A DNA stretch of 57,876 nucleotides from Psammoneis japonica (taxonomy: Eukaryota), in contig QPGO01000124.1 of assembly GCA_008632985.1 (NCBI GenBank), forward strand, positions 186,001-243,876, written 5' to 3'. Under the pieces are notes generated by a model, which saw only the letters and a list, made by a program, of their open reading frames with translations, did no database searches and was not told where the DNA came from. The translations under genes and the position numbers were made by a program. This document shows positions 1 through 41,645 of this stretch, piece after piece. Each line of letters begins with the position of its first letter. Position 1 is the stretch's first letter.

Positions 1-1399
1 CAACTCAAGTTGTGCCATCAATCATCTCATGTTTTGTTGCACTCTGTCCCCCAATTTTTGTGTGCATTGTGTGGAATGGACAGCTGCAACCTGGGTGCTG
101 ATGTTTTGCGCAGTTGAGAGTCAAGCTGGAGCAGCGGCGCATGGCAGAAACCACGGACAATCTGTGCGTCACATCTCTGGACAACTTCCATCCACACCAA
201 CTGGATCTAATGCCACTTGCTTCATTTCTCTGTTGTTCAATCAAGTCCTCCTTTGCTCTTTGGGGGTCAAAAGCACTTTTCCTCTGTGTGGCGGCCCTTG
301 CAAGTGTGAGAATGTGAGCCTTCCTTTGGCGTCAGTTGGCTGTCATCCAGCCATTTGCAAAGCAATGGATCTGGTTGAAAGCCACTTGTGTTTCTCACAC
401 AAAAAACTGCTGTTCTTGCAGCAGCTCTGGGGGCACTTGAGGAGCTCAAGGAGCTCAAGTTCACAGTTGCTGCCCTCAGTGCTGCACAGCTCTCATGTGC
501 AGAGCCCGCCTCTCTTTGTGTGCATTTTGCCACAATTGTTGGGCCAGCAGCCATGACAGAACTCATGTGCACAGATCTTTCACAGCCAGCTGTGGGTGTG
601 TAGCAAGTCAAGGGATGATCAGATGCACAAGCTGTTGTTTGCTGCTGCATGTCATCAGCTGCTGTCACAGGCACAGTTGAGGGGATGTGTGAAAACAGAG
701 GAGTGAAGGGTGGGCTGTGCACCAGCAAAACACAACAACTGGAGCAGGGGAGCACCACAAGAGGTTGGAAAGACCAAGGTGATGGGTCCCAACCCCAACT
801 GCCCAACACTGGCCACAAGATGGGGGGGGGGGGCAAAAGGGCAGCAGCACACACTGCACTTTTGGAACAGCTGCATGTGCTGACTGCAACAATTCTGCCC
901 CACTGTCTCATCCAAGCTTGTGGGAAATGAGAATGTGGTGGCATGCCATGCTCATTCTCCAAACATGCAAAGATCATCAACATGTGTTGATTGCAGATGC
1001 ACACACAGCTGTTGACTGCACAACGGAGTTTGTGCTGAAAACTGTTTGGAAAATTTTCTTAGATGACAGATCATTGCAAGAAGCAACAACCACCAGCACA
1101 AAAATGTGTGAACCATGAGGCTTGAACACCTGTTGTTTTCCACTGAATGATGACATTGCTTGTCATGCTGCAATGAGGATGTGCCATTGGTGAATGTGAA
1201 TGCAGACCCCATCTCAGAAGGCACAAGAAGTCATGCATGTGAACCCACACAGATGCTGAGGGTGTGTGCAGCTGACTTCAACAAGTGTGCTGTGCAGAGA
1301 TGCCAAAAGAACAGCAAGAACAGTGGCAGCAGAAAGTGGCTGCCCCAAAAGCAAAGAGAGGGATGAGAAAGCAAAGAGCAAATTCCACACATTTTGTGT

Positions 1400-1830
1400 G
1401 AGAAAGAAGCTTGGAAAAGTGCAGAATCTGAGGTGGCCAGAAATGATCATCCAACAGACACCAGTGCAAGAAGGACAGCAGCAGAGAAGCAGGAGGAAAG
1501 GGCATGGGGCAGCAAGAGCTGCAGAAGACAGCTCTTCTTTTGGTGTGGATGGCTTGAGCGTGAAGTCAAGAAGTCACACAAAGAGAGGCAAATCATCTCT
1601 TGATCCAAGCAGCAGGCCTGCTGGATGGTGCCCCTTGAGGATGCTCACAATTGCTTGCAAGGCACCAAGCAGGAGTGCAGAGCTGCTGCACTGGCACCAA
1701 CTCTGAGCTTCCAGAGCTCTGTGGCCTCCTCTCAATCCACAGCACACACCAACTCAGGACACTTTGCAGCAAAGTTAAAAAGAAAATGCTCCAGGCATGG
1801 AAACAGGAAGGAAACAGATGGGAACAGCCA
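1400..1830 (+). repeat. Decayed copy of a dispersed repeat family (other copies at 12890-14310 inverted, and 40897-41640 plus 50510-51240)
   Basis: Shares TCTGAGGTGGnCAGAAATGA and TCAGGACACTTTGnAnnAAAGTTAAAAAGnAAAATGCT with 50647-50980. Boundaries approximate. Confidence 0.6.
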
Positions 1831-2225
1831 GTGCATGACAAAGTGCTGGTGCGGCATGTGCAGACATGCAGAAAAAATTAGCAGGTGAGGTCTTGGGCAA
1901 GGTGCAGCACAGCACGCCAGATGCTGTTTGATGGGTGGCTGCTGTTGCTGCTCTCGGCTCTCAACAATCACCTGACAATCATTCTTGGAGACAGTTTGCC
2001 GGCCACAGTTGAATCTTTTTGCAGCTGCTCTTTGTGCAAGAGAGCAACAACAGAAAGGTGTCCTTTTTCGAGACTTTTTGTTGCAATGAAGTGACTTGGG
2101 AATTAGAAAAGAAGGAGGGCAGCAAACAATTCTTGTGGATGACAAGGTCAATGAGCATGAAGAATGGAGAACAATCAAAAGCTTGACATCTGGCAGCACC
2201 ACAATTGCACACGCTCACTGCTTCC

Positions 2226-3134
2226 GACTTGTTCCAGACTTAGGTGGCGCGCACATGCCCCTTCTCGCAGAAAATTTTTTTTTATGCTTTATACAACATC
2301 GTACATATTTCATTATATTGATCATATCAATTGCTTTTAAGTAAAATAAACAGAATAAACTCGAACAAACAAACAGCCAAACCGGCCATGGCTTTCAGTG
2401 ACCATGACGGCCCACTTTTTTCAGCCTTATGGAAAATTTAATGTCATGACGAGGCCCTCCGTATTTGATATAGTCTATGGCATCAACAACAATAGTGAAA
2501 ATGCTTGTTACAGGTTGCAGCGCGGCACAATAATACTAAATCTGTCAGCAACAACAATTGAGCCTCAATTCACTCACAATTTGCCTCTAAGGACCATTTC
2601 TTTGCCATTACCATGTATACTTCCTCAATATATTCGACGGATTCAAGTGTCTCAATCGTTTATGCCTCTTAAACAGTGAAAAATGGTCCGAAGTCGACGC
2701 CATTGCGTGGGCTGAGCTACCCTTCTTCTCACGTCGTCGGAAACTTATCAATCAACGTATGTTTTATTCGATCCGTTGAATCAAAGTTGTATTCGCGCAT
2801 TGTAACCAAGATTAATTATGTTATGTTAGAGGGTTCATTTATATATAAGAATAATATTTTATACGTTTCTACACACATTTAGACATCTATAAATCGCTCC
2901 TCGGAAAACAGAGCTCTCAACTTACGGTACAATTTAGGGACTAATAACTGAGTCCATCCACAGTTTCGAATACATGGGTACACGCACAAGACCTTTCTGT
3001 ATGTACCCATAACAACACATTTGAAAATTGTTATGTTTTTACTATCGAAAATGGTACCGCAAGTGTGGACCGCGCGTTTCATGCGAAAAGGGTCATTTTT
3101 TCGCGCGTGAGGGCACCTAAGTCTGGAACAAGTC
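2226..3134. mobile_element. Non-autonomous TIR element (MITE-like, 909 bp) with 4-bp TSD
   Basis: Perfect 21-bp TIR GACTTGTTCCAGACTTAGGTG (2226-2246) / CACCTAAGTCTGGAACAAGTC (3114-3134). Flanked by TTCC at 2222-2225 and 3135-3138. AT-rich non-coding interior. Confidence 0.9.
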
Positions 3135-3399
3135 TTCCTTGCAAGCTGACACAGGATGAATTTTTGTCACCCGGTGTTGCAGCACTGTGTCTCAAAGCAA
3201 ACTCTAGACTTGCGCCAGTCCACAGTCCAACTGCTGACTGTTGCGCAAATCATCACTGTCCACCAAGAGTCCAAGTGTGGCACAAATTTGAGCTGTCCAT
3301 CAGGAACTTCCGTGCTGACAGCACAGTGAAAAATGTCATGGTGGGAGGGTCAAACAAAGCCTTGCTGACAATGCAGATTGTGTTGATGAGGGTGGTGAG

Positions 3400-4500
3400 C
3401 TTCAGCATTTGGCTGGCAAAGTCTTGAAACCCCTCCAACATGCTGGGCTCATGGGTGAGGTCAGCACTGGTTCAAGAAATTGCCAGGGCAAACCAGACTT
3501 CTCAATGAGGGGACAGGAAAATGAAGCAATTGTTTTGGGGGATTCAAAGGCAACACATGACTTGCCCCTGCCAATGGCAGCACAGGAATTGGCAACACAG
3601 TGCAATGAAAGCAGAGCAGTTGTCAAGCCATTGACCCAACCAAGATCAGATCATCACCAACACCCCTGTGGACGATCTCATGTGGGATGTCCCATTTCAC
3701 AAATTCTTGGGTGCATGGTCCTCAATCAATGTCATTGCGAGGTTCTCACCAGTGGGTTGAGAACATGTTTTGTTCACATGCAGAGGGATGATGCCATTGG
3801 TGAAGAAATTGTGCAGATCGGTGGTTTTTTGGGCAAGAGAACTGTCTCAGTGCATGGGCCTTTTTCTACAAATGTGCTTGTGATGACACACATGGCAGGA
3901 TCTCAACAAGGACAAGTTTTCTCAGGCCTGGCTTGAAGGCACACCAGATGGAGCCAAGAAGAGCCCCCCTTCTCATCTGATCAGGGGACGCGGAAACAAA
4001 AGTTTGGGCTTTTTTGTCGTGGCTCACATTGGGGTGGTGGAAGAAAGCAGGTTGGCTCAAATTTGCTTTTTCGTGGCAAAGGAAACATGCCCAAAAATTG
4101 GATGTGGTCGTCATGGAACCACATTCAGTGGTGCATGGAAAAATGGAGAAATTGTTGCGCTGAAACTCTTTGATGCTTGCAAAAACAAGGGAAGGGAAGG
4201 AAGGGAAGCTTTTGAGCAAAAACATTTGAAAGGGGCATGGGGCCAACTTGTTCCAACTCCAAAATTCGTTGCTGAGGCTTTCGGTGTGATCTGCTTTGGG
4301 ATGCAAATGGCAGAGCAACCTTCTCAGTTTGCCAGTTTTGAGGATTGGGATGAAGTTGCAAGCAAGCTGGAAGAGAAGTGCGGCTTTCGTCATTTGGACT
4401 TAGAAGGAGATGAACGCAGCCCCAATTTTTGAAATCACATGATGCTTCACGACAAATCGGGACAGATGCAGCCAATTGTGATTGACTTGGAGGTGCGCAA
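3400..4500 (+). pseudogene. Decayed protein-kinase-like gene
   Basis: Broken frames read IGCGRHGTTFSGAWKNGEIVALKLFD (Gly loop plus VAxK) and GFRHLDL...PNF. No Tyr retained. Boundaries approximate. Confidence 0.55.
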
Positions 4501-6409
4501 ATTGCTCCATTTTGCTCAAGTTAGAAGCTTTGAGAGCGCGTCAATTTGAGTGCTCTGTTGTTGTCACAAACCATGTGTGCCATGGTGTTGAAGGATGCTG
4601 CTTTCTGCCCCAATGCCGCGCTTCCACGTGCATCTTCTTTTTTACAAAAATGCATTTCCAACCAACTGACATGACACCGTCATAAAGTTCTAGACCACCT
4701 TTGGGGTTGCATGAAAGCCTGCTGCTGGCCACACTTTTCTGTTTTGAGACATTTGTTCATTGGCTGTTCTTCACACTTCTGCTGGCTTTGGCTTAGCGGC
4801 CAAGTGGTGTGCTGCCAGCACTGCACTGCGTGCGGCATTTCAACTTTTCATGAACTCTGGCTGGCTCTTGCAAAGTGTCTTTTCATCTTTGTGTGGCTGC
4901 CACCCTGCTCCCTTGGCACAAAAGCCATCTCACAGGCAGCTGTCATGGCTGGCATTGTTGTGCTGCTGACACTTTGCACCAGGTGTGTGCATGGGCTTTG
5001 TCTGGGATGCACAGAAATCACAATCTGTGGGTGTGACAATCTCATCAACACTGCTGGCATGTGGCAGCACTCAATCTTTTGCTCAAGAGGAGGTTGCCAC
5101 TCAACTCTGAAAGAAGAAGCACAGCTTGCAAACTCAAGATGTTTTTGCTTCAATGCCAAAAAGTGTCAACGTGGCTGTGGTGCTGTGTGCCACCACTGAG
5201 CAGCTGAGTCCCACCCAAGAGGCTCAACAGCTCAGCACCAGTGCTGGACTGAGTCACAGCTGGCCAAGTCAAATCACACATTTGATTTGAAAGAGCTTTT
5301 CATGGTCAGCCACAATGAACTCAAGCTGCCACTTTTTCAACAACTTTTGTCTGCCAAGCCAGAAGGGCATGCAACAGCAGCTGAGTCATCAACCACGCTG
5401 TCCCCATGCTGAACTTGACATCACAGTTCCTGCAAACAAGTGAGCACAGCTCAGATGCAGTGAGCAACAAGGACAATGATGACAAACTGACTTCAGTGCT
5501 CAAGAATGAAATGGAAACACAAATTCACCTGGTGTGTGCAAACTTCACACCAGCTTGACATGCACAAGGAAATTGCTGCATCCTTTTGGCACTTGGCACC
5601 CAGCTTGAGCGTCACCACAGCGCCCTCCCTTCTCACGACTTTCTGCCAGTGCAAGCAACATCTTTGAACAAGTTGTGCAAGCTTGGCCACTTGCAACAAG
5701 TTGACAATGAGGCTGGACTCATGACAGGAGCCCCTCTTTGCACTTTGCAGGTCCTCTGCAGGTCACAATGATGGTCAAAGCAAGAGACACAGAGTGGCAG
5801 AAAAACGTGCCACACACCTTCATTTGCAAGCGGCTCCCTTCCCCATGCATGTGGTGCAAAAACAAAAAGCAAAGAATGTGCAAGAGAGTGCTCTTGAGAA
5901 ACAGTGGCAAAAGCAGCATCGCATGTTGCTGAAGACAAGCTGCACTTTTAAAGACAGATCTGGTGCGATGCTTGCCCAGACTGTGGAAACAAGTCCCAAC
6001 AACTTGTTGGGTGGCTGATGCTGTGGAAAGAGCTGGCTGCAGTGGCTCAGCACCCGGTGCAAGTGTGCCTTGACCACTGCGGAACAACACAAAACTGTGT
6101 GGGCACTGCTCTGGTGCAAAGCATGCTGAAGTGTGTCATTTTTAGGGTTTAGGTCATTGAGCAGCTTGAACTTTTGTGCAATGATCTGTGGGAGGTTTTT
6201 CCTCTCCCCGCACACTGTGCAGACCTCCCATGAATTGGCCGCGCGCTCGCTCACTTATCATCGCGCGAGAACCCGCGAGGCACCCGCATACGTCGCGACC
6301 CTTTATCTCTGTTTGCGTCCCACTCCAGAAGTACTATGGTAGAGAGGGCCTTTGTGCATGTTTTTGTTTTGCCTGTATCGTCAAGAGAAGAGTCTAAACA
6401 CAAAAAACA

Positions 6410-7534
6410 ATGAGACAACGTATGCTTCTTGTTCGTCCCATGGCGAAAGCTCTTTATCCAACAACAAAAACGACGACTCGAGCGGCCTTTCTTCACTCAT
6501 TCGAAAAAAGCAAAAAATCGCCCGTGCGCGATACAAGGTTGGCAGGACGAGTCCGTTTTTACAAGTCGGTAGGAGTGACTTCAGTGTCGGCTCCATGGGA
6601 AGAATCTCTGAATAAAAGTAGCAGTAGTATTGAATCACCCATCAGTGCGGGTGTCGATGGTACGCAGAGTGCATCGGGTGTTTCTCTCGACATGCCGACA
6701 CGCGAGTCGCTCCAGGAGCTCTTGACTCCACGACGACACTTTTCCAAACAAAACAATTGCAATTGGTTTGGTGTCACTCTGGATGGACGTACCATCAAAA
6801 CTCCGTTGGGACAAACACTCGCGGTTCCATCTCAAACGTTAGCTTGGGCCATTGCGGCCGAATGGGACGCTCAAGCGAAAACGCTACAACCGGCTCAAAT
6901 GCCACTCATGACCTTGGTGTGTACCACATTGGATCAAACCACTGCCAATCCAAGCATGACACAAACTCAAACGTTGCAATATTTACCCACCGATACGACA
7001 TGTTATTGGGCCGATCCAGCCGAAGACCGTGTCTTGTATCGCAAACAAGAAGAATCGTGGCAAGGTCTTCATGAGTATGCTTGTGCGTATTTGATGGGTA
7101 GTACTACTACCGATAATCATGCATTGTTACCCGCACGTGCCGTGGGTGCGAGCGAAGGACTCCTCATGTCACGAGCACGCAAAAGCAAATCTAGCAGTGG
7201 ATTGCCACATCCAACGGAATTTGTACAAGCTGCCACAAAATGGGTCGAGGGTTTGGATGCTTGGCAATTGACGGCAGCACATTCCGTGGCGGCAGCCAGC
7301 AAGAGCTTTTTCATCAGCATGGCCGTCGTGACGTCGGATATTACTACTACTACAAATCATCCCTTTGCAAACGACTTGTCCAAGGCTGTCTTGGCAGCTC
7401 GTGTCGAAGAGGAGTTTCAAATTGATAATTGGGGATTGGTCGAAGGGGGGCATGATTACGATCGTCTCAATTGCTCGATTCAACTTCATGCTGCACACTT
7501 TTTGACGTCCGCCATTGCGTCGGACACACTTTGA
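6410..7534 (+). CDS. ATP12: Mitochondrial F1-ATPase assembly chaperone ATP12/ATPAF2
   Basis: Intact 374-aa ORF with RFYK, VTLDGRTIKTP, AIAAEWDAQ, MPLMTL, TDTTCY and ARVEEEFQIDNWGLVEGGHD motifs. Basic N-terminal presequence. Confidence 0.95.
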   Translation: MRQRMLLVRPMAKALYPTTKTTTRAAFLHSFEKSKKSPVRDTRLAGRVRFYKSVGVTSVSAPWEESLNKSSSSIESPISAGVDGTQSASGVSLDMPTRESLQELLTPRRHFSKQNNCNWFGVTLDGRTIKTPLGQTLAVPSQTLAWAIAAEWDAQAKTLQPAQMPLMTLVCTTLDQTTANPSMTQTQTLQYLPTDTTCYWADPAEDRVLYRKQEESWQGLHEYACAYLMGSTTTDNHALLPARAVGASEGLLMSRARKSKSSSGLPHPTEFVQAATKWVEGLDAWQLTAAHSVAAASKSFFISMAVVTSDITTTTNHPFANDLSKAVLAARVEEEFQIDNWGLVEGGHDYDRLNCSIQLHAAHFLTSAIASDTL

Positions 7535-9293: not shown

Positions 9294-10024
9294 CTTGATT
9301 TACATAGAGTGGAGAAAGCTCGGCGAACTTTGGTGATATCTTTTTTTGTAAAAAAGTGAGGAACAGCAAGAAAGATCCGTGTCTCTGGATGCCAAAAAGT
9401 GACACAACAAAAAGATTCATCAGGTAATGAGGTCATTCTTCAGTCGCGCAAAACTCATTTCTCAGTACAAAAAGTACGTGCATTTCTACGAGATCCTGGA
9501 CTTCTGACATCTGATCAACGTTCTCATGTCACAGATTCTCCATTCAACGCAGTGCAAAGTGCAACGACCATTGCAACTCTACAGAGCCATGGCTTTGTTT
9601 GCTTCACTAATTCCTTTTAAGTCCATTGTCACTTCTGCAAAGTGAGTCCTTTGCTTCTTTTTTGCTGCTCTTGCGTGCTGTCCCGCCGCTCTCTTTGCAA
9701 CTCTGCCTTTGTTTCACGGCCACACCCTCTGCGTGTTTTTCTGTGTGAGCTCTGGTGCAGATGCCGCCTTTTTCTGATGGTGTGATGATGGTTCTTACCT
9801 GCCTGTTCAGACATGTTTTTTTGTTGACATGCCATCATTCCATGATCATTGGCAATCTCATGCAGTGGAAAACGAATTGCACCAAGCTCTCATGGCTCAT
9901 TTGCTCGACGCTCTTCTCTCGGCATTTTTTGTTCTCGCGTGCAAAGTTTCCACACAGGTCTCAGTGCAAATTCTGCACATTCTGCAAGTCATTTCAGATG
10001 GATGACTCATCAAACTGCCGATTG

Positions 10025-10053
<29 letters not shown>
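10025..10053. repeat. (CT)14 microsatellite
   Basis: Directly visible. Confidence 0.95.
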
Positions 10054-10055
<2 letters not shown>

Positions 10056-10199
10056 CGCCTCTCAAGCGTCAACGACCCCCCCCCCTTCTTCTCTCTGTTG
10101 TCTGTCCAAGTTTTCTGCGTCATGTGGTGAACATTTTCCTGTCATTGCTGTTTTCAGAAGTTTGAAGAAGAGACCAATTCAGTGTGCATTGGCCATCCT

Positions 10200-10650
10200 T
10201 CTGTGTGCCGACAAGTCCGCACAAGTTTCAGCACAAGTTCTGCATGTCATGGAAATGTTTTCAAATGGCAGATCTCCCAATCTCTCGACTCTGCTGCTCT
10301 CCAACCACACCTGGCAAGCTCCAAAGACTCCCCCTTCACCTGCTGTCCTTTTAAGTTCTCTGCCCCATGTGGCAAACACCCTTTTGTTCTTGCTGCTGCC
10401 AGAAGTTTGAATTTGAGATCAACTCGGCTTGATTTGGCTCTTTGCCTGTTTGCCGATGCTTCCTGCCAAGTTCCTGTGCAAGAATCAGTGCAAGTTCTAC
10501 ATGTCACAAAAATGTTTTCTGACGGCCTGTCTCCCGATCATCCAATGGCTCTTCATCCATGCCTGCCAAGCTCCAATGACCCCCCCTTTCCTCAATGCCT
10601 TTTTAAGTTCTCTGCTCTGTGTGATGAACTCTCTTTTGTTGTTGCTGCCA
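10200..10650. repeat. Diverged tandem duplication, about 250-bp period, 2 copies
   Basis: CAAGTTCT.CATGTCA...AAATGTTTTC, CAAGCTCCAA.GAC.CCCCC and TTTTAAGTTCTCTGC recur near 10230-10400 and 10490-10650. Confidence 0.75.
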
Positions 10651-12889
10651 CTTTTCACTTTGGAGTGTTCTAAAAGATGGCTTGCTTCAGTGGAATGATC
10701 AGATCCAGTCAGAAGAAAAGAGCCATTCTGTTGCTGTGGTTTCAAGTGCTTTGAAGGCAACAAATCAATTTGCTGTTGCTGTCCATGACACCATTCCCAA
10801 CTGTTCCCGGCGGGCATCATCATTTGTTGGTGATGCCCATCTCAGCTGATGGCAATGCATTCCTGCTGCACTGTTGGTGCACTGGGGTTGTGGGTTGGCT
10901 TGTTGCGGAGTTGCAGGGTGGAAGTGCAGCAGCACTTTAAACACAGAATTTTGGTTTTGTTTTGTCCTGCCTTTCTTTGCACTCTCATCCATTTGAGATG
11001 GTGGCGCAGCACCCACCACACCTCGCTGTGCTCAACAAAAATGCAGCTGATGCTTGCTGGGCACAGCCACACAGTGGCAAGGTGGCAACTCTCATTTGTG
11101 CACTTGCCTTGTTCACTGTGACCTGTGACAGCAGTGTCTCAATGACCGTTGGTGCAAAAAAGCCTCTCCCACCTTTTTCGGGTTGTTCAGAGAAGTGTCA
11201 CAGCTTGTGTGTGTGCATGGCTCTCATCACTGCAAGAACAAGAAGAAGGGGTGATCATGTTGCAAGATGGTGTCACCACTTTGTTTCTCACAAAGATCGC
11301 AGGTGCTGCTCAGGAGCTGCTCATGCCAATCAAAGGTGACACAACCAGAGCAGCAACAATGCAAATAAAAGCTTTGGGGTGGGAGCACCAAGGGCAAGAG
11401 AAAGCCACCAAATGACCCCTCAGAAATGTGCAGCTGCCTCTGTGTGCACCGAAAAGGAGTTGGCGTTGATGAGCAGCATCTCTTGACTGGGCAATGTTGG
11501 GATGCCATTTTGTCAATGCAGTCAAAAAGACATCTTCACAGCTGGGCTGAAGTGAGCATCAGTGCCAAGAAGGGTGCTGAGGCCCATGACACAAAAGGAG
11601 CCAATGACATGTGACACTCTCCTCTTTTGCTCCAGCAACTCTGGCACATCTTTTGTGACTCTCATGCAGCAGATCCCCCACGGATCTTTCCACCAACAAG
11701 CCCCAAAGTAATGACACAAGCTGTCTGATGAAGTCTGCATGCACGTTCGAAAAAGAGTGGAATCTGTCCTGCATTCATGAAACCCCATGAGCGCATTCGC
11801 TCCTCTTTGTGACAGCAAGTTAAGTTGTCACAGTGCGGCAGGTCATCAAACAGTGTGGGGTGCCATGCGCGCACATCCCCAACCCACGCCAAGGGGTCAT
11901 AAAATGTCCCCGACGGTGTTTTTGTCAAAAATCCAGAATCCAGAATCTGCCGCCTTTGGGGACAAACAGTGCACCCTCAGAGGGTGAGCTCTGGAGCCAT
12001 TGGCGGCACACAAACAACTGGCCTCCATTGACCACATGACGTCCCCATGACAAGTTGCAACCTTGCCACACCAACACAACATGGATGAATTTGTTGATCC
12101 AGATGTTGTTGAGTTCTCAGCACAAGATCATGAGCATGCGTTTGCTCCTGCTGCGAGGAAAGTGAAAGCATCGACAAGTGCCTGTTTTCATCGGACAAAG
12201 CTCTCGCAAGGAAGGAGCACTTTGAGAAAGGCTTTGAAGCCAGTGAAACTGCGAGATGGCAAGTGGAGAAGAGCCAATTTTGCAGCCAAGTGGAGGTGAA
12301 TGGAGCCAGCAACAACTTCCTCAAGTCATGCAAGAATGTTGTTCGGCCCACGCTCGCCAAGTGCCGACAGCTCAGTGGCATCATGGGCAGCGATGACATG
12401 AAACATGGCAACTTCACAAACTTGTGGCTGAACCAAGATCTTCACATGGCATTGCAAAATTTTGTCAATGCAAGAATCACCGCGCCCCACAACCAAGCCA
12501 CGTGCATGAAATCATGGAAATGATTCGGGTTTTTATGCTGCAAATGACACACGGCGAGACCGCGAATGCTCTTTTCACCGAGCCAAAGTGGCACGCCATG
12601 ACAAAAAAATCAAACATTGACCATGATCGACACAGTGTTGTTCTGAGAGCTCTTGGGGCACAGGAACCTGATGACTCCAATCTGTTCGATCCGGCCGAGC
12701 ACGACAATGCAAATTTCATGCCGTGCATTGAGGCTGAGGATGCAACAAGGTTGCACCGCACACAGAGACGAATTTTTACTCACCCAAAGTGGTGATTTTT
12801 TGAGTCATCACACATTGCCCCTTTGTTGTTTTAATCAAGTTAGTCAAACACAGCTTCAAACTGCCGTCATGTGGCAGCGCGCACGGAGA

Positions 12890-14310
12890 AGACAGATCTT
12901 GCGGCACAAATGCCGCCAGTCTAACGCAAGCAACGAGGACAGTGAACATAGAAAATGTGACAGCATTCCAAGCAGAAAGAATTGCTGTTGTCAGCTGTTG
13001 CTTGTTTCCTGTCTCTCTGTTGTTGTTTCTTCTTGCTTTTGCAGTGCAATGAGAGCAAGCTTGTCTCGCTGCCCACTTCAAGCCTGTCTCACACACTTCC
13101 TTCCCACTGCCATGCTGCACACAGTGATCAAAGCATTTTGCTTTTCAACTGTGCCACAAAGTGCTCTGAGTTGGCAATGCAAGAGGCGGCCAGGCAGCAC
13201 TGCTGCTGCTCTTGGCTGGCGGCCTCACAAGCAGTGGCTGTGCATGATGATGTGCACTCTTGAGCCACCACCTGGTGCCAAGACTGCACCGAGTTGACTT
13301 GCTTCTCCCTGTGTGGCTTCTTGACTTTGCCCACGCCATCCTCACTGAAGCAAGCCTTTGTTTTCTCACCCTGCTTTTGCCGCTGCTTGTTTTGCGCTGG
13401 CACACGCTGGAGAGGATCATTTCTGGCCACCTCGTCAGATGCTGCATGCCTGTGAATTTCTGCTCTTTTCATCTTTTCTTTTTGTTGTTGTTGTTCTGGT
13501 TGCTTTCTGCTCCAACACACAGCAGAGCTGCTTTTTTTGCTGCTTGCACTGCTGCTCTTGCCCGTGACCTTGGTGCCTCAGGAGAAAAGCATTGTGTTGC
13601 TGGGAGCTCTGCACCAAACACCAAAGCTGCAAAGACAGTTGCCCAGCTCTGCAAAGAAGTCATGGAGCACATGCTTGTGTTCTCATTTGACAAAAGCAGT
13701 GCACAACAGCAGAGAGACATCCTCAGCAAGCTCCGGTGCTTTCGCGCATGCTTGGAGATTCATCGACAAGCGTGCTGGAGCAGTTTTTTGTGAGGCAGCT
13801 TCAACGACAACTGGGTCACACCTCAAAGTGGTGTTGAAAACACTTCTCAGGGTGCTGCTTGGTCATGGACAACACACAGAGATTCTTGGCTGGCCTGCTG
13901 GGGTGGCAGCGAGCTTTTGCTGGGGTTGTGCTGCAAAGCATCTCACAACTGCTTGCTTTTGGCTCCCAAAACAGTCTCACAATTTTCCCTTTTTGGCATT
14001 TTGTTCACCCCTTCCACCCAGTTCTTCAAGGCACAGCACATGCCACTGTCCTCTGTGCAGGCTCTTGCCCCCTCTGTGGTGGCTTCTCTTCTTGATTGCT
14101 TCTTCATGTTGCTGCTGCTCTGCCTCCTCTTGCAGCCTCCTCCTCCACTGGTGTTGGTGTGGCTCAACACCCTGTTTCTGCACAAGCTCCTTGCCTGCAT
14201 GTTGCATTTTGCTTCACATGTTGTTCCTTGTCCTTGAGTGCAGCTGCCTTTGGTGACAGGTCCTTGTGCAGTTGTCAGTTCTCCCAACTTTAACATCCGG
14301 GTTACTTTTG
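12890..14310 (-). repeat. Dispersed repeat, probably a decayed transposon, ending at CCGGGTTACTTTTG
   Basis: Inverted homology to 40897-41640 (which begins CAAAAGTAACCCGG) and to 50510-51240. The end coincides with the switch to normal TA content. Confidence 0.75.
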
Positions 14311-14478
14311 CGAGATGAATCATCAAAACCTTCAGCCCACACCACGAATGCCGTTATTACCGGGCATCCGCCGGGCGGTATTTTGGTTTTGAGAAAGCGT
14401 CACCGAGGGCGTTGTGCATCGCTCTTGCTTTCCTACATCTCTCATCTACTCTATTTTGCTTCTATTTAATCACCTCTA

Positions 14479-16447
14479 ATGTTGACAACACGGGTGGAAA
14501 CGAACGTGTTGGTCGCTGCTGCATGTGGTTCGTCAAGGGCGTTGTTCTGGTCACAGCTTGTCGAGCTACTGTCGCTGCTTTTGTTGGTTTGTTCCGGAGA
14601 GGCCATTACATTTGCAGTGATTCCAAAAAGTACCGCAAGTCCCTACTTTCAACAAGCAGACCGTGGTTGTCAGGAAGCTGCCAAGGATCTGAATGTCACG
14701 TCTCTCTTTGTCGGCAAAGACGTTCTCTATACGAATTCAACGGATCAAGCAGAAGTACTGTCCAATCTGCTACAGAATGTTATCAACAATAGAACCGCCA
14801 ACAAAATAGATGGAATTGCCATTGCCGTGTTTAATGAAGACATTATGACACCGTTGATCAACCAAGCGATTAGGGAAGCCAACATTCCTGTTGTGACGTT
14901 TGATAGTGATGCGCCGCAAAGCAACCGTTTGGCGTACATTGGCACGGACAATCGCTTTTTGGGGACAGAAATTGCAAAAGTATTGAAGCAACTCAGACCG
15001 GAAGGAGGGACCTTTGGTATAATGTCACATTTCAGTGAGAATGTGAGGGAACGCGAGAATGCATTTCGTCGTGAAGTGCTTGAAAATAGCAATGGCAAGT
15101 GGGTGGAATTGGAGACAAGCCCGTCGTATCCGTCAACCTATGAGGAAGCACTCAACGCCACTTCTAATTTTGCAAAACTTGGTCCAACAGCCATTGCATT
15201 AATGTTGGAAGGACCCATGAGGGTAACAGAAGAATGGGAACGGATTGTTGACACTCACAAGGAAAAAGATATTGTCTATGTCAGTGGAGACGGTTCTACC
15301 AACCAACTTGATTTGTTGTCACGACGAAAGTGCCACGGCCTTGTAGCACAGTTACCGTACGAAATGGGATATGTCGCTATACAAGTCCTGCATGATTTGG
15401 TACAAAACAACAAAAGTAGCGTCGCTCAAGAATACATTGGTACAAATGTTTTGACGCACATTCAAGTTCCACTTATCCTTCCCCACCTCGAGGTCGATAC
15501 GAATCGCATTGGAGGCCTTGCCATTGTAGGCTTTATCCTCTTTGCCTTGGTTTCCATAGCTTCTATGGATTCATTGTATGGACGTTTACAACAGGAAGAA
15601 ACAGGTTGTCAAGGCATCACAGCCAATATTTCTTATGTTCGTTGCCCTAGGAGCACTCATCATGGTCTCGTCCATAGTGCCCTTATCGTTTGACGATAGC
15701 ACTACCAAGCTCGGTACGACTGGGATCTGTATGAGCGTACCATGGCTTAGCTTTATGGGATTCTCCATTACCTTTTCGGCCTTGTTCAGTAAAACACGTC
15801 GCATCAATCGCATCTTCAAAAAGGGTCATGCCTGTACACGAGTCAAGGTCGAACCGCATCAAGTATTAATTCCCGCTGCGGTTCTTGTTCGGCCAATGCC
15901 GTGGTCTTGATTTGCTGGACCGTACTGGATCCCTTGACCTATGTCCGTGAAAACCACGCAGGCACGGATGGGTGGAATCGAGTCATTTCTACTACGGCGC
16001 ATGCCGTTCGGATCACGGCTATCGGTACTTTGTGCCTCTCGCTGTGATTAACTTGATTGTTCTTGTTATTGCCAATTGGCAGCCTGTCAAGCGAGACATA
16101 TTACAACCGAGTTTTCAGAGTCCAAGTACGTGACGCTGGCGATGGTATCCATGTTGCAGTGCGGAGCCATGGGGATTCCTGTTTTGTTTTTTGTGAGGGA
16201 GGAACCGCAAGCGTTTTACCTGATTTTGGTCTTTATGTTGTTCATTGTGTCCATGGGAGTGCTTCTTTTGATCTTTGCTCCAAAAATTCGCCTTCAAAAG
16301 AAATATTCAAAAGCTACTCCCGAGCAACAACGGAAAATGATGGCAATTTCTGTCCGGGAGTCACACCAGCAAGAAAAAAGTACGACGCCGACGGTGCCAA
16401 ACACTCCTCCGCCAAGGGAAGAACCAACTTCGAGCCTCAAGGAATGA
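14479..16447 (+). CDS. Class C (GABA-B-like, 7tm_3) GPCR with an N-terminal RbsB-like periplasmic sugar-binding domain; about 5 small frameshifts in 15560-16085
   Basis: Signal-like hydrophobic stretch, then IPVVTFDSD, AYIGTDN and VAQLPYEMGY. 7TM motifs VVKASQPIFL, CMSVPWL, FSALFSKTRRINRIF, CWTVLDPL, EFSESKY and LIFAPK lie in shifting frames with no intron-sized gaps. Confidence 0.85.
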
Positions 16448-16614
16448 AAGAGAATGGTGACAGGTTTGGCACAGGACTTACGATGGGGTTCACAACAATT
16501 TCCATCTTAGGCATTATAGTAAGTATGAATGACATGCAACAGTATGAACCTGATGAACCAGCTGCGCATGCCTTGCTTGTAACGCTGCTGACCGACGACT
16601 GCTCAGTATTAACC

Positions 16615-18549
16615 TCATCGGACAGGCTCTCTCACCTGAAATGGAAATGCTTCTGATGCTCCAAATTCGTCACCTGACGTAATCAGATTGGCCCTATCGC
16701 TGGTGTCCTCTCCAAAAAACAATTGATAAAAGCCTCTCGTTTCAAATTTGCAACAAATTCCATCACCAAATGAATCTGAGATTTCAAAGATGCACGATGC
16801 TCCGGCTCTGGTTGTCAAGACCTCTGTCACGCGTTCATTTGCTCGGGCGTACGTTGAGGGATTCACCCTTATCAACTCCGAGTCGTCACAAACCATGCTC
16901 CACCCTGTTTCCGATGGATACTCATCCAGCTGAATCACAACCGTGAGTTTGACAGGAATGCTTGGAGTAGGCGAAACCGTTGGAGACAGCGTAGGAGCTC
17001 GAGTTGGAAACCGAGTCGGAGGTCGTGTCGTTGGATATGGGGTGGGAGGAGGTGGCACGTAAAATTGAGGCTCTTTAGTTGGAGAGCTTGTCGGAGCTGG
17101 CGTTGGTAGAGAAGTAGCAAAAAGACTCGTGGGTGGCGATGACGGTGGGCCGGGTGGCGCAGGAGGACCGATAATCGTACCAAATGGAGTCGGGCGTGAA
17201 GTCAAGGCGAATGTTGGCACCGAAGTAGGCAGTTGAGTTGGCGAAAGAGTTGGCGCTGGAGTTGGACTAGTCGTTGGCGCCGCAGTCGGAGGCGATGTTG
17301 GATCTCTCGTTGGGAAACTCGATGGCACAAACGATATTGTCGGAGATACCGACGGAGCCAAAGAAGGTCGGAAAGTGGTCGTTGGTGATGCCGACGGAAA
17401 GGTAGTTGGAGCCTGCGTCAGTGGAGCTACCATGGTAAAATCGACCTGAGTTTTAGACGTGAAATTGCCGTCCCCATTGGCCAGAAGAGTACCGTTAGAT
17501 GAATAAACTTGTCCATAGTGGATCCGGAAAAATCTCCCGTCTTCTAAGCCGTCGCCACCTGCATCCTCCAACACAAACGTGCATTCTTGTCCAACCGTAA
17601 CAGGAAACTGAGCAGTCAAATTGCGATTAGCACTCCTCTCATCATCCACTCCAATCGGAAAGTTTGCCCTATTGGTTCCGTCGCAGTCCAGTTTCCATCC
17701 CGTTTCGCGAGGCTTAGAGTCGAGCCCAACAACGACCGTAATCTGTTCTTGCGCAGTCGGCGCCGGCGTTGTGGTAGGGCTGCTGCTTGGAAACGAAGTC
17801 GACGGCGCCAATGTTGCTGGCGGTGAAGGCGAAGACGACCTTTTTGTAAGCGGAACAGCGATGCCAATAGACAAAGCCACTAAATTACAAACGAGGACAG
17901 CAACAGACAAACGGGTTTTCCAAGGATGGACAGGAATAGCGGACGCGGACGCCATTTCTTTTCCATCATTGTTTGAGGGTGTCACAAGTTCAGCCTGCAG
18001 GAGAGTTTCGCCTTGATGCTGCGGTGTTTGAGACGAAGCAGTATCAGCAGTAGTAGTATTTGCTTGCTGTTCCATCTCAATGTCAAACGCATCATCTTCT
18101 TCACGGTCACTGGTCAAGTCAACTCCAGGACCAGCCATGCGAACTGCACCAGGAACAACACCAGCATCAACCGGCACATCAGTAGGCTCAAAATGAGAAA
18201 GAGCAACTTCGTCACCTGAAGCTTCGCTTTTTGGCCCTTGTTGTGCTTGGCTTAGTCGATACCGAGACCCGGGATCTTTGTTGGAAATGTCGCTGTCATC
18301 AAGAACAGATTCTCCAAGAGATTCGGCCTTGTGGTCTTTCTTTTGACATTCATTTTGGTGACGTGAAGGTAGTCCTTTTATATCGTCACGTTGTTGCGGC
18401 TGCTTGTCATCAAATGAAGCTGCGTACGCTGCGTAGGAAATGCTGGAACTGGAAGCACCAGTTCTATCCGCACGCGATGCGTCTTTGTCGTTTTCGTTTC
18501 TGCATTCTTTGTCGGCGGCATGGTTCTTCATTGTCATGCACTCTGGCAA
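16615..18549 (-). CDS. Single-pass membrane protein (644 aa) with Pro/Thr/Ser-rich stalks and two copies of a LDxxPxETGW...DxxGDG domain; function unknown
   Basis: Intact ORF with normal codon content. Acidic disordered N-terminus, TM helix LSVAVLVCNLVALSIGIAVPL, PTxxPT repeats and a duplicated extracellular domain. Confidence 0.85.
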   Translation of the reverse strand: MPECMTMKNHAADKECRNENDKDASRADRTGASSSSISYAAYAASFDDKQPQQRDDIKGLPSRHQNECQKKDHKAESLGESVLDDSDISNKDPGSRYRLSQAQQGPKSEASGDEVALSHFEPTDVPVDAGVVPGAVRMAGPGVDLTSDREEDDAFDIEMEQQANTTTADTASSQTPQHQGETLLQAELVTPSNNDGKEMASASAIPVHPWKTRLSVAVLVCNLVALSIGIAVPLTKRSSSPSPPATLAPSTSFPSSSPTTTPAPTAQEQITVVVGLDSKPRETGWKLDCDGTNRANFPIGVDDERSANRNLTAQFPVTVGQECTFVLEDAGGDGLEDGRFFRIHYGQVYSSNGTLLANGDGNFTSKTQVDFTMVAPLTQAPTTFPSASPTTTFRPSLAPSVSPTISFVPSSFPTRDPTSPPTAAPTTSPTPAPTLSPTQLPTSVPTFALTSRPTPFGTIIGPPAPPGPPSSPPTSLFATSLPTPAPTSSPTKEPQFYVPPPPTPYPTTRPPTRFPTRAPTLSPTVSPTPSIPVKLTVVIQLDEYPSETGWSMVCDDSELIRVNPSTYARANERVTEVLTTRAGASCIFEISDSFGDGICCKFETRGFYQLFFGEDTSDRANLITSGDEFGASEAFPFQVREPVR

Positions 18550-19999
18550 AGCACTGATCTAAGAAGGAACCAGACCGACTAATCAAGAGAGGTCTGGTTT
18601 GTGTTGACGTGATGAGTTGGTGTATTGGTCGCTCTTTCTACTACTGCTATGAATACTCTACTCTCTCGAGCTAGTAGTAGTAGCTACTCTAGCTACTACT
18701 CTAGAGCTAGAGTAGCTAGCTACTACTACTAGCTAGTAGAGGAGGTAGAGGTTCAAAGGTGCGTTATCACGAGTCGTGATCACCCAATTCCCGCGCGTTT
18801 GTTGAGTCGGGCTTCAACATGGGTGCCATCACTCGCGTCGTAATCTGGTCGTAATTTCAAAATTGCTCGCACCGGCACAGAAAAACAAAGATGAAAACAA
18901 AATCGGTCATTTCGGTCATTGCATGCGAATAAATCCAGCTGCATGATGGCTCAGCCACTCACAGTGCCAGTGTGACAACGATGTGACGATCCCACAGACA
19001 CTCCAAGGCCTGTTGCAACTGCTTGCAACAAGTGAGTGCCGTTGGAGGATGACCCATCAAGATTTTGCAGGGGAGGGGCTGCATTCACCCAGCCACATTT
19101 TGGCACATGAGACATGCCCGCCCCCCCCTTCATGCAAAATTTCCACAGATGTGACAAATGGAAATTGCCGTGCTGATCTTTCGAAAATTGTTGTCACTTT
19201 TTGTCGACGCACCCACGGAGACTCATTTTCTCCACGACGTTTTCTTCCCTCACAGCAGCGTTCTTGCTCTCTTGTCTTTTGTCTCTTGGGTTGACAAGCA
19301 GCTCTGATGTTGGTGTCAGAGAAACAGGAAGGAGCAAATTTTGGCACTCAAATGGAAACCGGTTGACACACGTGAGCCAAGCACATGGAGCCGATGTTGC
19401 AGCCATTGTTGAGTGGAAGGGCAATGATGGGAGTTTGTGGAGAGTCGTTCCTTGCTTCAGAGTTTCTTTGCACAAAATGTCTTCCACTGTTGACTCAAAG
19501 TCTGGGCCAAAATGTTCAAAACCTGGTGGATCAGCAACTGTCTCCAATGTTGTTGGTCAAGCTTGCTGTTGCATCGGTTGGGCCAACGAGCAAGAGATTT
19601 GGGTCCAGCAAAGGTGGTGTTTGCAAACCAGCATCTGGTGTAGAAGCCAAACAATGCAAAGGATCCACACCGGGGATGCTTCCCACAAACAGTCAGGAGC
19701 TGAGTGACTCACCAGCCCACCACCACCTTGAGTGGCAAGAAATGCATTTTCCAACAGACCCCTGCTGAGTGAATTGTTTTTGCATTCATTTGGCAGTGCC
19801 AGAAGGAAATTGGGTCACACTTCTTTCAGAACCTGAGTGGTCAGCTCATCCAGTGGACAGCAATTGGAAACACTCAGGTTCCTTGCACCATGACCCTTCT
19901 TGCAGCTAGTCCCCTTGTGCACCATGGACACATTTTTGTCCCAAAGTTAACTCAAGCTGGCATGTTGCCAAAATGCGGCAGAAATTCAGGGGGGGCTTC

Positions 20000-20590
20000 T
20001 TGATGGGTCATCCTCCAATGGCGCTCACTTGTTGCGCAAGCAGCTGCAACATGCCTCAGAGTGTCTGTGGGATTGTCACATTGTCATCACACTGTGACCA
20101 AAATGACAGATTTTGTTTTCATCTTTGTTTTGCTGTGCAACCAATTTTGAAATTGTGGCCATGTCACAATGCGAGTGATGGCACCCATGTTGAATCCAGA
20201 CTCAACAAATGTGCAGGAATTGGGTGATTGCGACTCGTGACTGCTGCACTTTTGCTGAACCTCCACCTGCCAGCTGGAGTGGCAGCAGTGGAAAGAATGT
20301 GCACCAACTCATCACATCAACACAAACCAGACCTCTCTTGATTGGCTGGTCTGGCTCCTTTTAGATCCATGCTTTGCCAGAGTGTGTGACAATGAAGAAC
20401 CAGCCGCCAACAAAGATGCAGAAACAAGAATGACAAAGACGCATTGCATGCGGACAAAACTGGTGCTTCCAGTTCCAGCATTTGGCAACGGCCGAAGACA
20501 GGAGATTTTTCCAGATCCACTGTGCGGAAGTTTGTTCAACTGATGGCACTCTTTTGGCCAGTGGGGACAGCAATTTCACTCAAGACAGCG
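20000..20590 (+). pseudogene. Inverted, internally deleted, hypermutated duplicate of the 644-aa gene and its upstream region
   Basis: 20000-20483 is the reverse complement of about 18440-19060. 20490-20585 reads RRFFQIHCAEVCSTDGTLLASGDSNFT versus GRFFRIHYGQVYSSNGTLLANGDGNFT in the gene. Confidence 0.9.
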
Positions 20591-21474
20591 GTGGACTGCT
20601 GAGTCACTCAGCTCTAGACTGTTTGTGGGAAATCATCCCCACTGTGGATCCCCTTTGCATTCCTTGGCTTCCACACCAGATGCTGGGCATGTTGCATGTG
20701 CCAAAATGTGTCCAAAAATCAAGTCGGTTGTTGTTTCACCCTTGTCACCTGCTCCCATCCAAGCAGGAGTGCATTGTGTCTGCATGAAATTTGGAAAATC
20801 TCCTCAAGTGCTTTCTACATGGAACCCCCTTTCTCCAGCTTGGCATGTTCCTTGCTTGCATCAGTGCTTAACTGAGCAGCATGAGTCACCCGAATGTTTT
20901 GGCAATGATGTGACAGAACAGTTTTGAGACTTCCAACAGCTTTGTCAACGACTTTTCTGATTGAAAGCATGGCCCCTGTGCTTTCCTTTGCACCTGGACA
21001 ATCTTCAAGTTTGATTCACAGCTCCCTGTCACAGCTGTGTTGTGTGTTTGCTGACTTCTGCTTGCATTTTGGATCACAGAAAAAGGCTTCTCTTTCACAC
21101 AAGGACAGCAAGGGAGGTTCACCTTTGACCAAGGGCAGCAAGGCAGGATCACAGTCTCCCAAACACCAGATCCAGATCCTGTCGCGCAGCTTCCTCATGA
21201 GAACCTCAATTGTCAGATCACTCCATCCATGCTGCTCCAACACGTCTTGGTCAATTTCTCTGTTTGTGTCATTTTCCCAACCATCAACTCCACATCCTGA
21301 TGAGCTCTTTGCAAGCTCTGACAGCTCCCTCAGATGTTTGCCGTCAAGCCCTTCCTCCAAAAGCTGTGAAAATGGAGTTGTTGCACCATCACCTTCTGCC
21401 CTCAACGGGGATTGTTTCAGCCAGGTTGAGCAAACGACAGCATTCTCTTGGCACCACTTTCATTTGCAAGCCCT

Positions 21475-21924
21475 TCAATGAGTCGGCATGTGCAACACTT
21501 GAGATCTGTCCCAAAGCAGTGGTTGAGTGGCACTTGCCTTGGTGCTTTGATTCACATGAACAATGCCAAGCAGATTGCGATCATTGTCCAACAGGGGACA
21601 ACCACTGCACCCGGGTGCAGAATGAGCAGCAACTGTCAATTGCGTTTCCTGCATTTCAATGACCTGCCCTTTTGTGCAAATGCTTCCGTGTCCAATCACC
21701 AGTCTTCCAACCACACCTCTGCACCTTTCGAGCAACAGTTTGTCATGGGAAAAGAATCCAGAATTAAGGTTTTTCTTCATGGCACTGTGCAATCGGCAGG
21801 CAACGTCATTCTTGCCACTCAAGACACAGTCTTCTGGCAAGAACAAGTTTGTCATTCGAAAGGGGGATGCACTGCCAGGAGGATCTTGGCATTTTTTGTC
21901 TGCTCCCCAATGCAGTTCAAACAC
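21475..21924 (-). pseudogene. Trypsin-like serine peptidase remnant
   Basis: HSAPGCSGCPLLDNDRNLLGIV resembles the GxSGxP catalytic motif. Lies in a TA-depleted region. Confidence 0.5.
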
Positions 21925-23559: not shown

Positions 23560-24480
23560 ACTGTGACGTCATCCACTGCTGTGCCGGCTGCACGTTGAAA
23601 AGCGGCAAGCCCAATTCGAGCTGACACTGCACGACAACGCAAACAGCCTCAAAGCAGTGGCGGTGTTTCTCGACGCCGTGGCAAAACGTCCCTGAGAGAC
23701 AAGCGAAGTTCTTGATGTGGGCATTGAAAGCCTCTTGACGAGACCACGCCCGGCTCTTAAACTTTTGCAGCTCAGGTGAGTCATGGGGATTTGGTGTGCT
23801 TGCTTTCTTTTTTTCGCCTTGGCAACCTCTGTCACCAATTGCGAGCTTTCCTGCAGGAATTTTCTTGATGAGCTTCTTGCGGAACATCGCAATGTCATGC
23901 TTGGAGGCCTTGGCCGGTCCTCTCATCCATGCAAGGCGGTTCTCATAGATTGAGAGGGCAAGTTCGTAGGTCAAACCGGCTTGATTGGTTTTGTGGGAGT
24001 GACATTTCTTGTTTTTGCCACAGCGGGTGCTGTGGTTCGTTCACCCGGCAGTGGACACCGTCGACTGAAATGAGGAATGTGGCAGGTCAGGAGCGGCTCG
24101 ACTCCACTCTTCTGGCCACACAATTTTTTGTTTCTTGAGTGCTTGCATCTTTTTAACATGAACTCAAACCCACTTGCGTGCCGTGTTCTCACAGACAGCA
24201 AAAACAGCCGATCGGACCTCCTTCGTCTTGCAGAGTTTCAAGAAGTTGAGCGCCATCAAGAAATGATCCAAGCTGATGTCGTCAGGAGCAACATGAGCTT
24301 TTTCAATCTCAGTCGTTTGGAGATCGTGAAATGCATGCTTGCAAACTCTGGGAGTAGATCCAAACAACTTTTTGAATCGGCAGACGCAACAATCCTTTCC
24401 AGACTGTTTCTGGCAATGCGAGTCTACACCACAGAGAGCCAGACCCCTTTGGAGCATGTCAGTGGATGACATTTTCATCA
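23560..24480 (-). pseudogene. DDE transposase (DDE_Tnp_4/Harbinger-like), decayed
   Basis: SVDGVHCRVNEP, KHD, IGDRGC (from DxGY) and RQEAFN...KNFACL motifs, with stops and frameshifts. Confidence 0.85.
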
Positions 24481-24848
24481 TGGCACTCGGCAAGATGTGG
24501 GAAAGCAACAATCAAATGAAGACAGAGGAGTCTTGTGAGATTTTTGTGCCCGTGTGGTTTCTCAAACATTCGTGGGACCTGCTCCGCACTAGCCAGTTGC
24601 TTGCACTGGGTCCACACGACACACTGCGTGTCATGCTGCAAATGTAGCCTCACCAGAGTCTAGTTTTTACATGCGGCCATGTTCCACCAGTGGCGTGTTA
24701 GCTCTGGTGTGTCAGCTCTAGCTGTGTCGGTCCAATCGACAGCAATCATGACACAAAATCATTCACAATCTCGTGGCCACAATTCACGCTCGTTAGCAAG
24801 ATCCACACTTGCTCACACTTCTGGTTCTTGCCACACTAAACACACAGG

Positions 24849-25221: not shown

Positions 25222-25249
25222 GCTGTCATGTTGGCAGCGCACGGCAATT

Positions 25250-41640: not shown

Positions 41641-41645
41641 GTGCC

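Follow-up and report, generated by a model that had tools for sequence, protein, structure and literature searches.

We analysed a stretch of 57,876 bases from the diatom Psammoneis japonica (GenBank assembly GCA_008632985.1, contig QPGO01000124.1, positions 186,001 to 243,876 of the forward strand), which is referred to here as the window and to which all coordinates apply. Comparison of its sequence segments suggests, with a probability that we put at about 0.78, that the transposon-derived DNA was rewritten in place by a process which converts TpA to TpG or CpA at a rate that also depends on the bases next to the step. Each TpA contains two A:T pairs, and mutation would mainly affect the one with a pyrimidine after its A; the target would be 5'-T-A-Y on the strand carrying the A, which equals 5'-R-T-A on the strand carrying the T, and either strand could be hit (Y, pyrimidine; R, purine). 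A YTAR tetramer would present a slow TAR half-site on both strands and be lost at only about one quarter to one third of the rate, so that YTAR comes to dominate the survivors.

TA-depleted DNA and mobile-element remnants

The window was segmented into 200-base bins, and bins with at most three TA were classed as TA-depleted. By this binning, depleted DNA totals 46,076 bases with 258 TA and TA-normal DNA 11,800 bases with 527 TA. Depleted 1-kb bins showed observed/expected (O/E) ratios of 0.02–0.28 for TpA and of 1.3–2.2 for TpG/CpA, and ordinary stretches showed TpA ratios of 0.43–0.70. Overall, TpA was reduced about 8-fold in depleted DNA and G+C was not lowered. The remnants of mobile elements (copia, gypsy, Harbinger and an element coding for a protein of about 1000 amino acids) sit in depleted blocks, and the ATP12, metallo-beta-lactamase-fold (MBL) and receptor genes in TA-normal DNA. 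According to their source records, some of the element homologues belong to the diatoms Nitzschia, Fragilaria and Thalassiosira. The blocks and elements used below are:

1..2225, hypermutated block truncated by the window edge; five of the six residual TA in 1–2200 are YTAR
3135..6250, hypermutated repeat block from which the original prediction was made, no family assigned; TpA O/E 0.02–0.13, CpG O/E 0.15–0.38
9601..14200, hypermutated block; 18 TA, of which 10 YTAR and none RTAY
18801..39400, largest hypermutated block, containing the Harbinger, copia and ~1000-amino-acid-protein elements; 111 TA, of which 53 YTAR and 8 RTAY
23591..24493, minus strand, remnant of a PIF/Harbinger-type DDE transposase; up to 62% identity to intact homologues having PF13359
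28370..33760, plus strand, remnant of a copia-type retroelement with RVT_2; conserved tyrosines now cysteine or histidine
34576..38135, minus strand, element for a protein of about 1000 amino acids without a Pfam family; best homologue 41% identity, E 9e-124
42021..50506, minus strand, gypsy-type element; pol at about 42500–46200 with RVT_1, RNase H and integrase
42021–42456 and 50073–50506, 436-base direct-repeat pair around the gypsy pol, 91% identity, read as long terminal repeats (LTRs)
53401..57876, hypermutated block truncated by the window edge; 14 TA, 7 YTAR

Surviving TA dinucleotides are mostly YTAR

The loss of TA depends on sequence context. In 3130–6250 only 11 TA remain in 3121 bases, eight of them as TTAG, CTAA, CTAG or TTAA. 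The original prediction, which was derived from the sequence alone, had put the YTAR share in 3115–6250 at about 9 of 12 by hand count, and an exact recount returned the same figure; the same bias was found where it had been announced, in 1–2250 (6/7) and in the copia remnant (10/15). For the window as a whole, YTAR accounts for 132 of the 258 TA (51%) in depleted DNA compared to 94 of 527 (18%) in normal DNA (Fisher odds ratio (OR) 4.8, p = 2.9e-21), and the ratio of YTAR to RTAY is 132:16 compared to 94:153 (OR 13.4, p = 2.5e-25). Depletion of the NTAN tetramers is far from uniform, and an excess of YTAR is absent from unmutated DNA.

In the six tabulated depleted blocks with at least 11 TA, the YTAR share lies between 44 and 73%, and in normal segments with at least 10 TA between 10 and 29%. 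All seven depleted blocks having at least six TA show the bias; a 200-base depleted block at 8801–9000 retains five TA with one YTAR. The stronger the depletion, the larger the YTAR share, which rises from 0.17 in 2-kb bins with more than 60 TA over 0.24 (31–60 TA) and 0.48 (11–30 TA) to 0.59 (at most 10 TA). The same pattern is visible within depleted DNA without an outside baseline: as a share of TA+TG+CA+CG, TA amounts to 5.2% between Y..R flanks, 1.9% between mixed flanks and 0.6% between R..Y flanks. The corresponding values in normal DNA are 13.8, 18.2 and 21.8%.

One may ask whether the surviving TAs are instead back-mutations, parts of younger or unexposed insertions, or YTAR words kept by selection. 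A tandem repeat of about 189 bases (33746–34483) keeps the same TAs in each copy, so some survivors are indeed non-independent, but these are GTAC and TTAC rather than YTAR, and YTAR still makes up 126 of 242 TA when redundant repeat copies are masked. YTGR constitutes 22% of NTGN and YCAR 22% of NCAN; back-mutation from TG or CA would consequently yield 22% and not 51% YTAR, and unexposed DNA would contribute 18%. TA-poor bins within normal DNA contain 13 YTAR among 72 TA, and the first-order expectation from the flanking bases is 30%. As the bias appears in every depleted block with at least six TA and the tyrosine products described below independently show the same preference, we give this explanation hardly any weight. 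Selection of TA-poor bins, regeneration of TA from TG or CA, and redundant copies do not explain the YTAR bias.

A half-site model of TA decay

Survival relative to normal DNA was highest for the tetramers TTAA (0.41), CTAA (0.34), CTAG (0.32) and GTAA (0.19), and lower for CTAC (0.125), GTAC (0.067), ATAA (0.06), ATAG (0.043), ATAT (0.014) and ATAC (0.007). An additive model was fitted in which each TA consists of two half-sites, that is, the A of each strand together with its own 3' neighbour, with one rate (r) per neighbour. The fitted rates with 95% bootstrap intervals were r(TAA) 0.41 (0.11–0.61), r(TAG) 0.65 (0.37–0.96), r(TAC) 1.38 (1.15–1.68) and r(TAT) 2.50 (2.08–3.00). The model described the data with a chi2 of 15.7 over 16 cells, compared to 276.7 for a uniform single rate. 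The ratio of the rates for pyrimidine and purine neighbours was 3.7 (2.7–5.5), and T exceeded C at position +1 by a difference of 0.57–1.62. Little changed when TAs overlapping TATA were left out (TAT 2.27). YTAR sites are themselves depleted about 2.5- to 3-fold, which identifies TAR as a slow target and not as a protected one.

Extension of the model to position +2 resulted in rates of 2.3–2.8 for TATT, TATC, TACT and TACC, 1.70 for TATG, 1.05 for TACG and 0.66 for TACA; the contrast TACY minus TACR was 1.1–2.7. A second pyrimidine at +2 probably raises the rate. The order of preference at +1 would be T > C >> G ~ A, to which a pyrimidine at +2 probably adds.

The products reveal which A:T pair changes

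Counts of survivors cannot separate a TAY target from an RTA target in which the A is edited, since the expected numbers of each NTAN are the same for both; which A:T pair was mutated can be read only from the product, TG or CA. Among amino acids, only tyrosine (Tyr) has TA in every codon, and intact homologues were therefore used to locate ancestral TAY codons. A total of 395 proteins (230 for gypsy and copia, with those below 400 amino acids left out, 150 for the ~1000-amino-acid-protein element and 15 for Harbinger) were compared with the window by tblastn. A codon was kept if at least 60% of the aligned homologues carried Tyr, with a minimum of 10 homologues for gypsy and copia and of 5 for the other two elements.

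The 90 conserved Tyr codons found in the four elements now encode Cys in 50 cases (TGY), His in 27 (CAY), Tyr in 3 and other residues in 10. The Harbinger remnant contributes six of these sites (3 Cys, 1 His, 1 Tyr, 1 Phe) and the ~1000-amino-acid-protein element seven (3 Cys, 3 His, 1 Tyr). If TAY is the target, every Tyr codon offers a fast A on its top strand, and a second one on the bottom strand only when a purine precedes the codon. The products favour the A:T pair whose A is followed by a pyrimidine: after a preceding Y, Cys outnumbers His by 30:9 (binomial p = 0.001), and after a preceding R the ratio is 20:18 (p = 0.87; Fisher p = 0.033 for the comparison). The direction was the same in copia (15:4 after Y, 9:10 after R) and gypsy (11:3 and 9:6). 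The rate of TAR relative to TAY calculated from the products (9/30 = 0.30) was comparable to that from the survivor fit (0.27). Separated by the base at +2, Tyr codons after Y gave 12 Cys and 1 His when this base was Y and 16 Cys and 7 His when it was R.

Pairs of repeat copies inside the window provided 48 sites with TA in one copy and TG or CA in the other, 22 of them informative. Where one copy had kept TA, YTAY had become TG in 8 cases and CA in 2, and RTAR had become CA in 7 and TG in 5. Relative to normal DNA, depleted DNA gained 22.8 GC dinucleotides per kb and lost 17.2 AT per kb, as expected from the changes TAC to TGC, GTA to GCA and TAT to TGT. Among trinucleotides, the gain of TGC (+14.5) exceeded that of CAC (+11.0) and the gain of CAG (+9.9) that of TGG (+6.2).

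These data bear on the possibility that the context lies on the other side, with the edited A preceded by R-T (R-T-A, equal to a change of the T in T-A-Y). Such a process would leave exactly the survivor spectrum of TAY. It predicts, however, that His should equal or exceed Cys at Tyr codons and predominate after Y, whereas 50:27 and 30:9 in favour of Cys were seen; the conversion of YTAY to TG in the copy pairs (8:2) and the gain of GC with loss of AT fit TAY as well. We therefore regard this reading as very improbable.

Several points weigh against the reading in terms of TAY and its rates. The product test is modest, with 77 informative codons and a Fisher p of 0.033, and at a conservation threshold of 80% the gypsy and copia sites gave 20:6 compared to 13:10 (p = 0.22); moreover, Tyr sites inside one element share a common history. 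The 15 of 22 informative copy-pair sites in the direction predicted by TAY are weak when taken alone and carry no formal test. The same is true of the ratio YTGY/YCAY (1.35 in depleted and 1.11 in normal DNA), which in addition depends on the baseline. The flanks A..A and T..T show no shift of product (TG share 0.428 and 0.411). The effect at +2 is based on 258 survivors, and an influx from TATA inflates TACA; TACG appears slow by survivors (1.05) but not by Tyr products (TAC followed by G, Cys 11 : His 3; TAC followed by A, 8:8). Finally, the unmutated baseline consists of 11.8 kb of genes and spacers and not of ancestors of the mutated elements, and exposure was surely unequal among blocks, which distorts the fitted rates. 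On balance, the products and the copy pairs favour TAY over RTA on the same strand. The TAY target, which was the central inference of the original prediction, is thus borne out by products (Cys 30 : His 9 after Y; copy pairs 15/22), but not by the counts of survivors from which it had been derived, as these alone cannot reveal TAY.

Specificity and change at the DNA level

The change took place at the level of DNA. The Harbinger transposase is mutated and a DNA transposon is hence among the affected elements. LTR copies are identical at insertion, and the 436-base pair read as LTRs now shows 29 difference events: 13 of CG versus TG/CA, 7 of TG versus CA, 6 of TA versus TG/CA and 3 others, so that 26 lie at dinucleotides derived from TA or CG. 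Five of the six TAs that are still polymorphic in this pair are YTAR, as expected if slow sites go last.

The conversion is also highly specific. In gypsy and copia, Tyr is retained at 1 of 77 conserved sites, compared to 54–96% for other residues (e.g. Gly 108/113, Trp 38/42, Cys 15/17 and His 38/46). Substitutions of Lys by Arg (10 of 106 sites) and of Asn by Ser (1 of 46) are rare, which indicates that AA is not a target. Replacements of Leu by Ser or Pro, Ile by Thr and Val by Ala fall mostly on NCA codons (10/12, 5/7 and 8/8, respectively).

Two other mechanisms would increase G+C: ADAR-type editing of transposon RNA followed by its fixation through reverse transcription, and context-free GC-biased gene conversion. 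A 5' U is also preferred by ADAR enzymes. Their hotspot, however, is 5'UAG, and G at +1 is slow here (0.65, compared to 2.50 for TAT and 1.38 for TAC); moreover, the gene of a DNA transposase is affected and the 436-base pair differs at sites derived from TA and CG. Gene conversion should also have hit A-A and A-T steps, and it does not fit the retention of a single Tyr in 77 next to 54–96% of the other residues. The arguments raised against both mechanisms in the original prediction hold, and we consider them the least probable of the explanations discussed here.

CpG decay runs alongside the loss of TpA, as Arg has been replaced by His, Cys or Gln at 26 of 103 sites in gypsy and copia. The CpG O/E ratio is 0.08–0.38 in 1–6200 and 0.55–1.0 in 27000–50000, with TpA O/E similarly low in both; this uncoupling of CpG and TpA loss between blocks suggests either two processes or different ages. 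An alternative to a base-modifying enzyme would be repair in methylated repeats that triggers error-prone synthesis of patches at W-A sites (W, A or T) by a polymerase of the eta type. Such polymerases are known for hotspots of A to G transitions at T-A, and CpG decay does accompany TA loss within the same blocks. Hits at A-A would be expected as well, yet the changes from Lys to Arg (10 of 106 sites) and from Asn to Ser (1 of 46) contrast with the loss of Tyr at 76 of 77; furthermore, the two losses vary independently among blocks. This mechanism is therefore improbable as the source of the TA loss.

Contigs of one public sequencing run contain 0.42 of the words sampled from 41001–50000. Relative to the window they show 377 differences, 338 of them transitions, and represent paralogous copies; the 40 difference rows listed (9 TA-related, 19 CpG-related, 12 other) are too few for a test of context. 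The word depth of these contigs is 5–10x higher at 41601–42500 and 44901–46100 than over the gypsy pol, which shows that these two segments exist in very many copies.

In depleted DNA, TGA is nearly the only stop codon left, TAA and TAG having been lost. We counted 91 stop-to-stop open reading frames (ORFs) of at least 150 amino acids, many of which overlap on both strands. Dead transposons with Tyr replaced by Cys or His and without TAA and TAG stops thus constitute an annotation trap, as they produce long false ORFs.

Further features of the window

The remaining features mapped in the window are:

2226..3134, unmutated 909-base unit with terminal inverted repeats (TIRs); perfect 21-nucleotide TIRs at 2226–2246 and 3114–3134, TTCC at each flank
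6398..7531, plus strand, ATP12-family gene, TA-normal, included in the unmutated comparison set
8598–9299, MBL-fold ORF, listed with the stretches of ordinary TpA
14470..18558, TA-normal gene DNA, part of the unmutated comparison set
14470–16444, plus strand, receptor with periplasmic-binding domain and 7tm_3, TA-normal
16618–18558, minus strand, ORF of 647 amino acids, TA-normal
26354–26706, assembly gap of 353 N inside the largest depleted block

The 909-base unit has an ordinary TA density (69 TA in 2201–3200) and parts two hypermutated blocks. It is either a young insertion later than the mutation or a short element escaping it. To its right, a Pfam search of the ORFs in 3130–6250 returned no match. 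Just inside the right end of this block, a telomere-like pair of TTTAGGG and TTTAGG at 6139–6152 is the source of two surviving TTAG.

Within the largest depleted block, the ~189-base tandem repeat at 33746–34483 retains the same GTAC and TTAC, which are TAs of the fast type, in every copy; the array may have grown after the mutation episode or may be shielded. Two ORFs in TA-depleted DNA, one at 24664–25218 (plus strand) with a KOW4_SPT5-like Pfam match under the cut-off and one at 25560–26036 (minus strand) with a SAP domain, may represent fragments of hypermutated genes or host sequences that were captured.

The protein of about 1000 amino acids encoded at 34576–38135 has 269 relatives at E values of at most 0.001, and two of its homologues give sub-threshold ZSWIM RNase-H-like hints; it may represent an undescribed transposase family. 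The 647-amino-acid ORF at 16618–18558 was considered as an unmutated paralogue of this element, and the comparison rejected it.

Possible agents

A footprint of 3–4 nucleotides suggests a base-reading protein. Of the candidates, a DNA adenine deaminase that can attack either strand in marked repeat chromatin would be the most economical, the simplest chemistry being deamination of adenine to inosine. No deaminase domain was detected in the 144 ORFs of at least 120 amino acids in the window.

The same TpA process might also proceed via thymine. In this case the T of 5'-R-T-A would be modified or mis-repaired, leading to a change from T to C, and TAY would be its complement. One idea of this kind is the oxidation of thymine at TpA to a uracil derivative that pairs with G. 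The change from A to G in TAY and that from T to C in RTA are the same base-pair change, which tests on sequence cannot separate, and the effect at +2 can equally be read as R-R-T-A. Nothing in the sequence argues against the thymine route; in a preprint on a similar process in Bigelowiella (discussed below), the text favours adenine deamination as a proposal and not as a demonstration. We consider the thymine route rather unlikely, albeit far from negligible.

With respect to the adenine-directed reading, we put forward, tentatively and with the odds leaning somewhat against it, that diatoms, and perhaps a wider group including Bigelowiella, carry a natural chromatin-directed editor of selfish DNA which converts A:T to G:C on both strands and has a four-base footprint, T-A-Y-Y (R-R-T-A on the complement). 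It would represent a new enzyme class or a new specificity. Such a natural A:T to G:C editor of DNA would be of interest to the field of base editing, and the measured footprint would serve as a fingerprint for identifying the enzyme.

The dependence of the rate on the flanking bases turns a compositional oddity into an enzyme-like footprint. This footprint excludes ADAR-type editing and gene conversion and weakens a simple ADAT2 explanation for Bigelowiella. It also provides a quantitative signature (TAT > TAC >> TAG ~ TAA, TAR at about 0.3 of TAY, products predictable from the flanks) that can be checked against any candidate enzyme and against the roughly 230 published de novo TpA mutations of Bigelowiella.

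Comparison with known systems

Full-text literature searches retrieved no description of TpA hypermutation in diatoms, and the papers found were on fungal repeat-induced point mutation (RIP) only. Among 380 homologues checked for their Tyr content, only four small Tyr-poor proteins were present; public protein sets therefore say little on how widespread the process is. The TpA process itself is known from one preprint of 2026, which described TpA-restricted hypermutation in Bigelowiella natans of integrated DNA from nucleocytoplasmic large DNA viruses and virophages (Mettrop et al., bioRxiv 10.64898/2026.01.13.699255). According to its main text, only changes from A to G and from T to C occur, all at TpA and leading to TpG or CpA, and the rest of the genome is normal; a mutation-accumulation experiment revealed a raised de novo rate in some lines only, and an ADAT2-like deaminase was proposed as the enzyme (10.64898/2026.01.13.699255). 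The dependence on flanking bases is not discussed in this main text, in which the words 'context', 'flanking' and 'trinucleotide' are absent (10.64898/2026.01.13.699255). Both systems have in common the substitutions at TpA, with 77 of 90 conserved Tyr (TAY) now Cys or His in the case described here, and the restriction to selfish DNA with neighbouring genes unaffected, which was observed in this window. They differ in that Bigelowiella is a chlorarachniophyte with viral inserts and live mutations, whereas the window shows the end state in diatom transposons.

For the TadA and ADAT2/3 family, the target A34 follows U33, and the bacterial target is U-A-C-G as tabulated (PMC10661471 Table 1). 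Among natural ADAT2 proteins, the amphioxus BjADAT2 is the only one known to act on DNA as well; in E. coli its preferred contexts are 5'GAA (adenosine) and 5'TCG (cytidine) (PMC10354150). The chemistry from A to I would give the change from A to G seen here, T-A is common to both, and C at +1 is shared with the bacterial enzyme. In contrast, T at +1 beats C in the window, TACG is not clearly favoured, and there is no excess of C to T outside CpG. Early TadA-based editors reportedly prefer YAC. The resemblance to TadA claimed in the original prediction is a weak and unproven lead: T at −1 is required and C at +1 is fast (1.38), but T at +1 is faster (2.50), TACG gives mixed results and BjADAT2 prefers GAA.

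ADAR1/2 have their hotspot at 5'UAG in double-stranded RNA (PMC10661471 Table 1). They resemble the present process by clusters of A to G changes and by the preferred 5' U. They differ from it, since G at +1 is slow here and DNA transposons as well as presumed post-insertion divergence of LTRs are involved. The proposed T-A-Y-Y context would be unlike that of any characterised deaminase (ADAR, UAG; TadA, UACG; BjADAT2, GAA).

In Neurospora and other ascomycetes, RIP is likewise confined to repeats, acts on DNA and introduces dinucleotide-specific transitions by which transposons are killed and genes are spared. RIP converts C to T at CpA and hence creates TpA. In the window, by contrast, TpA is destroyed (about 8-fold down) and G+C rises, and one unit bounded by TIRs is untouched. 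The proposed editor would accordingly be a mirror-image counterpart of RIP.

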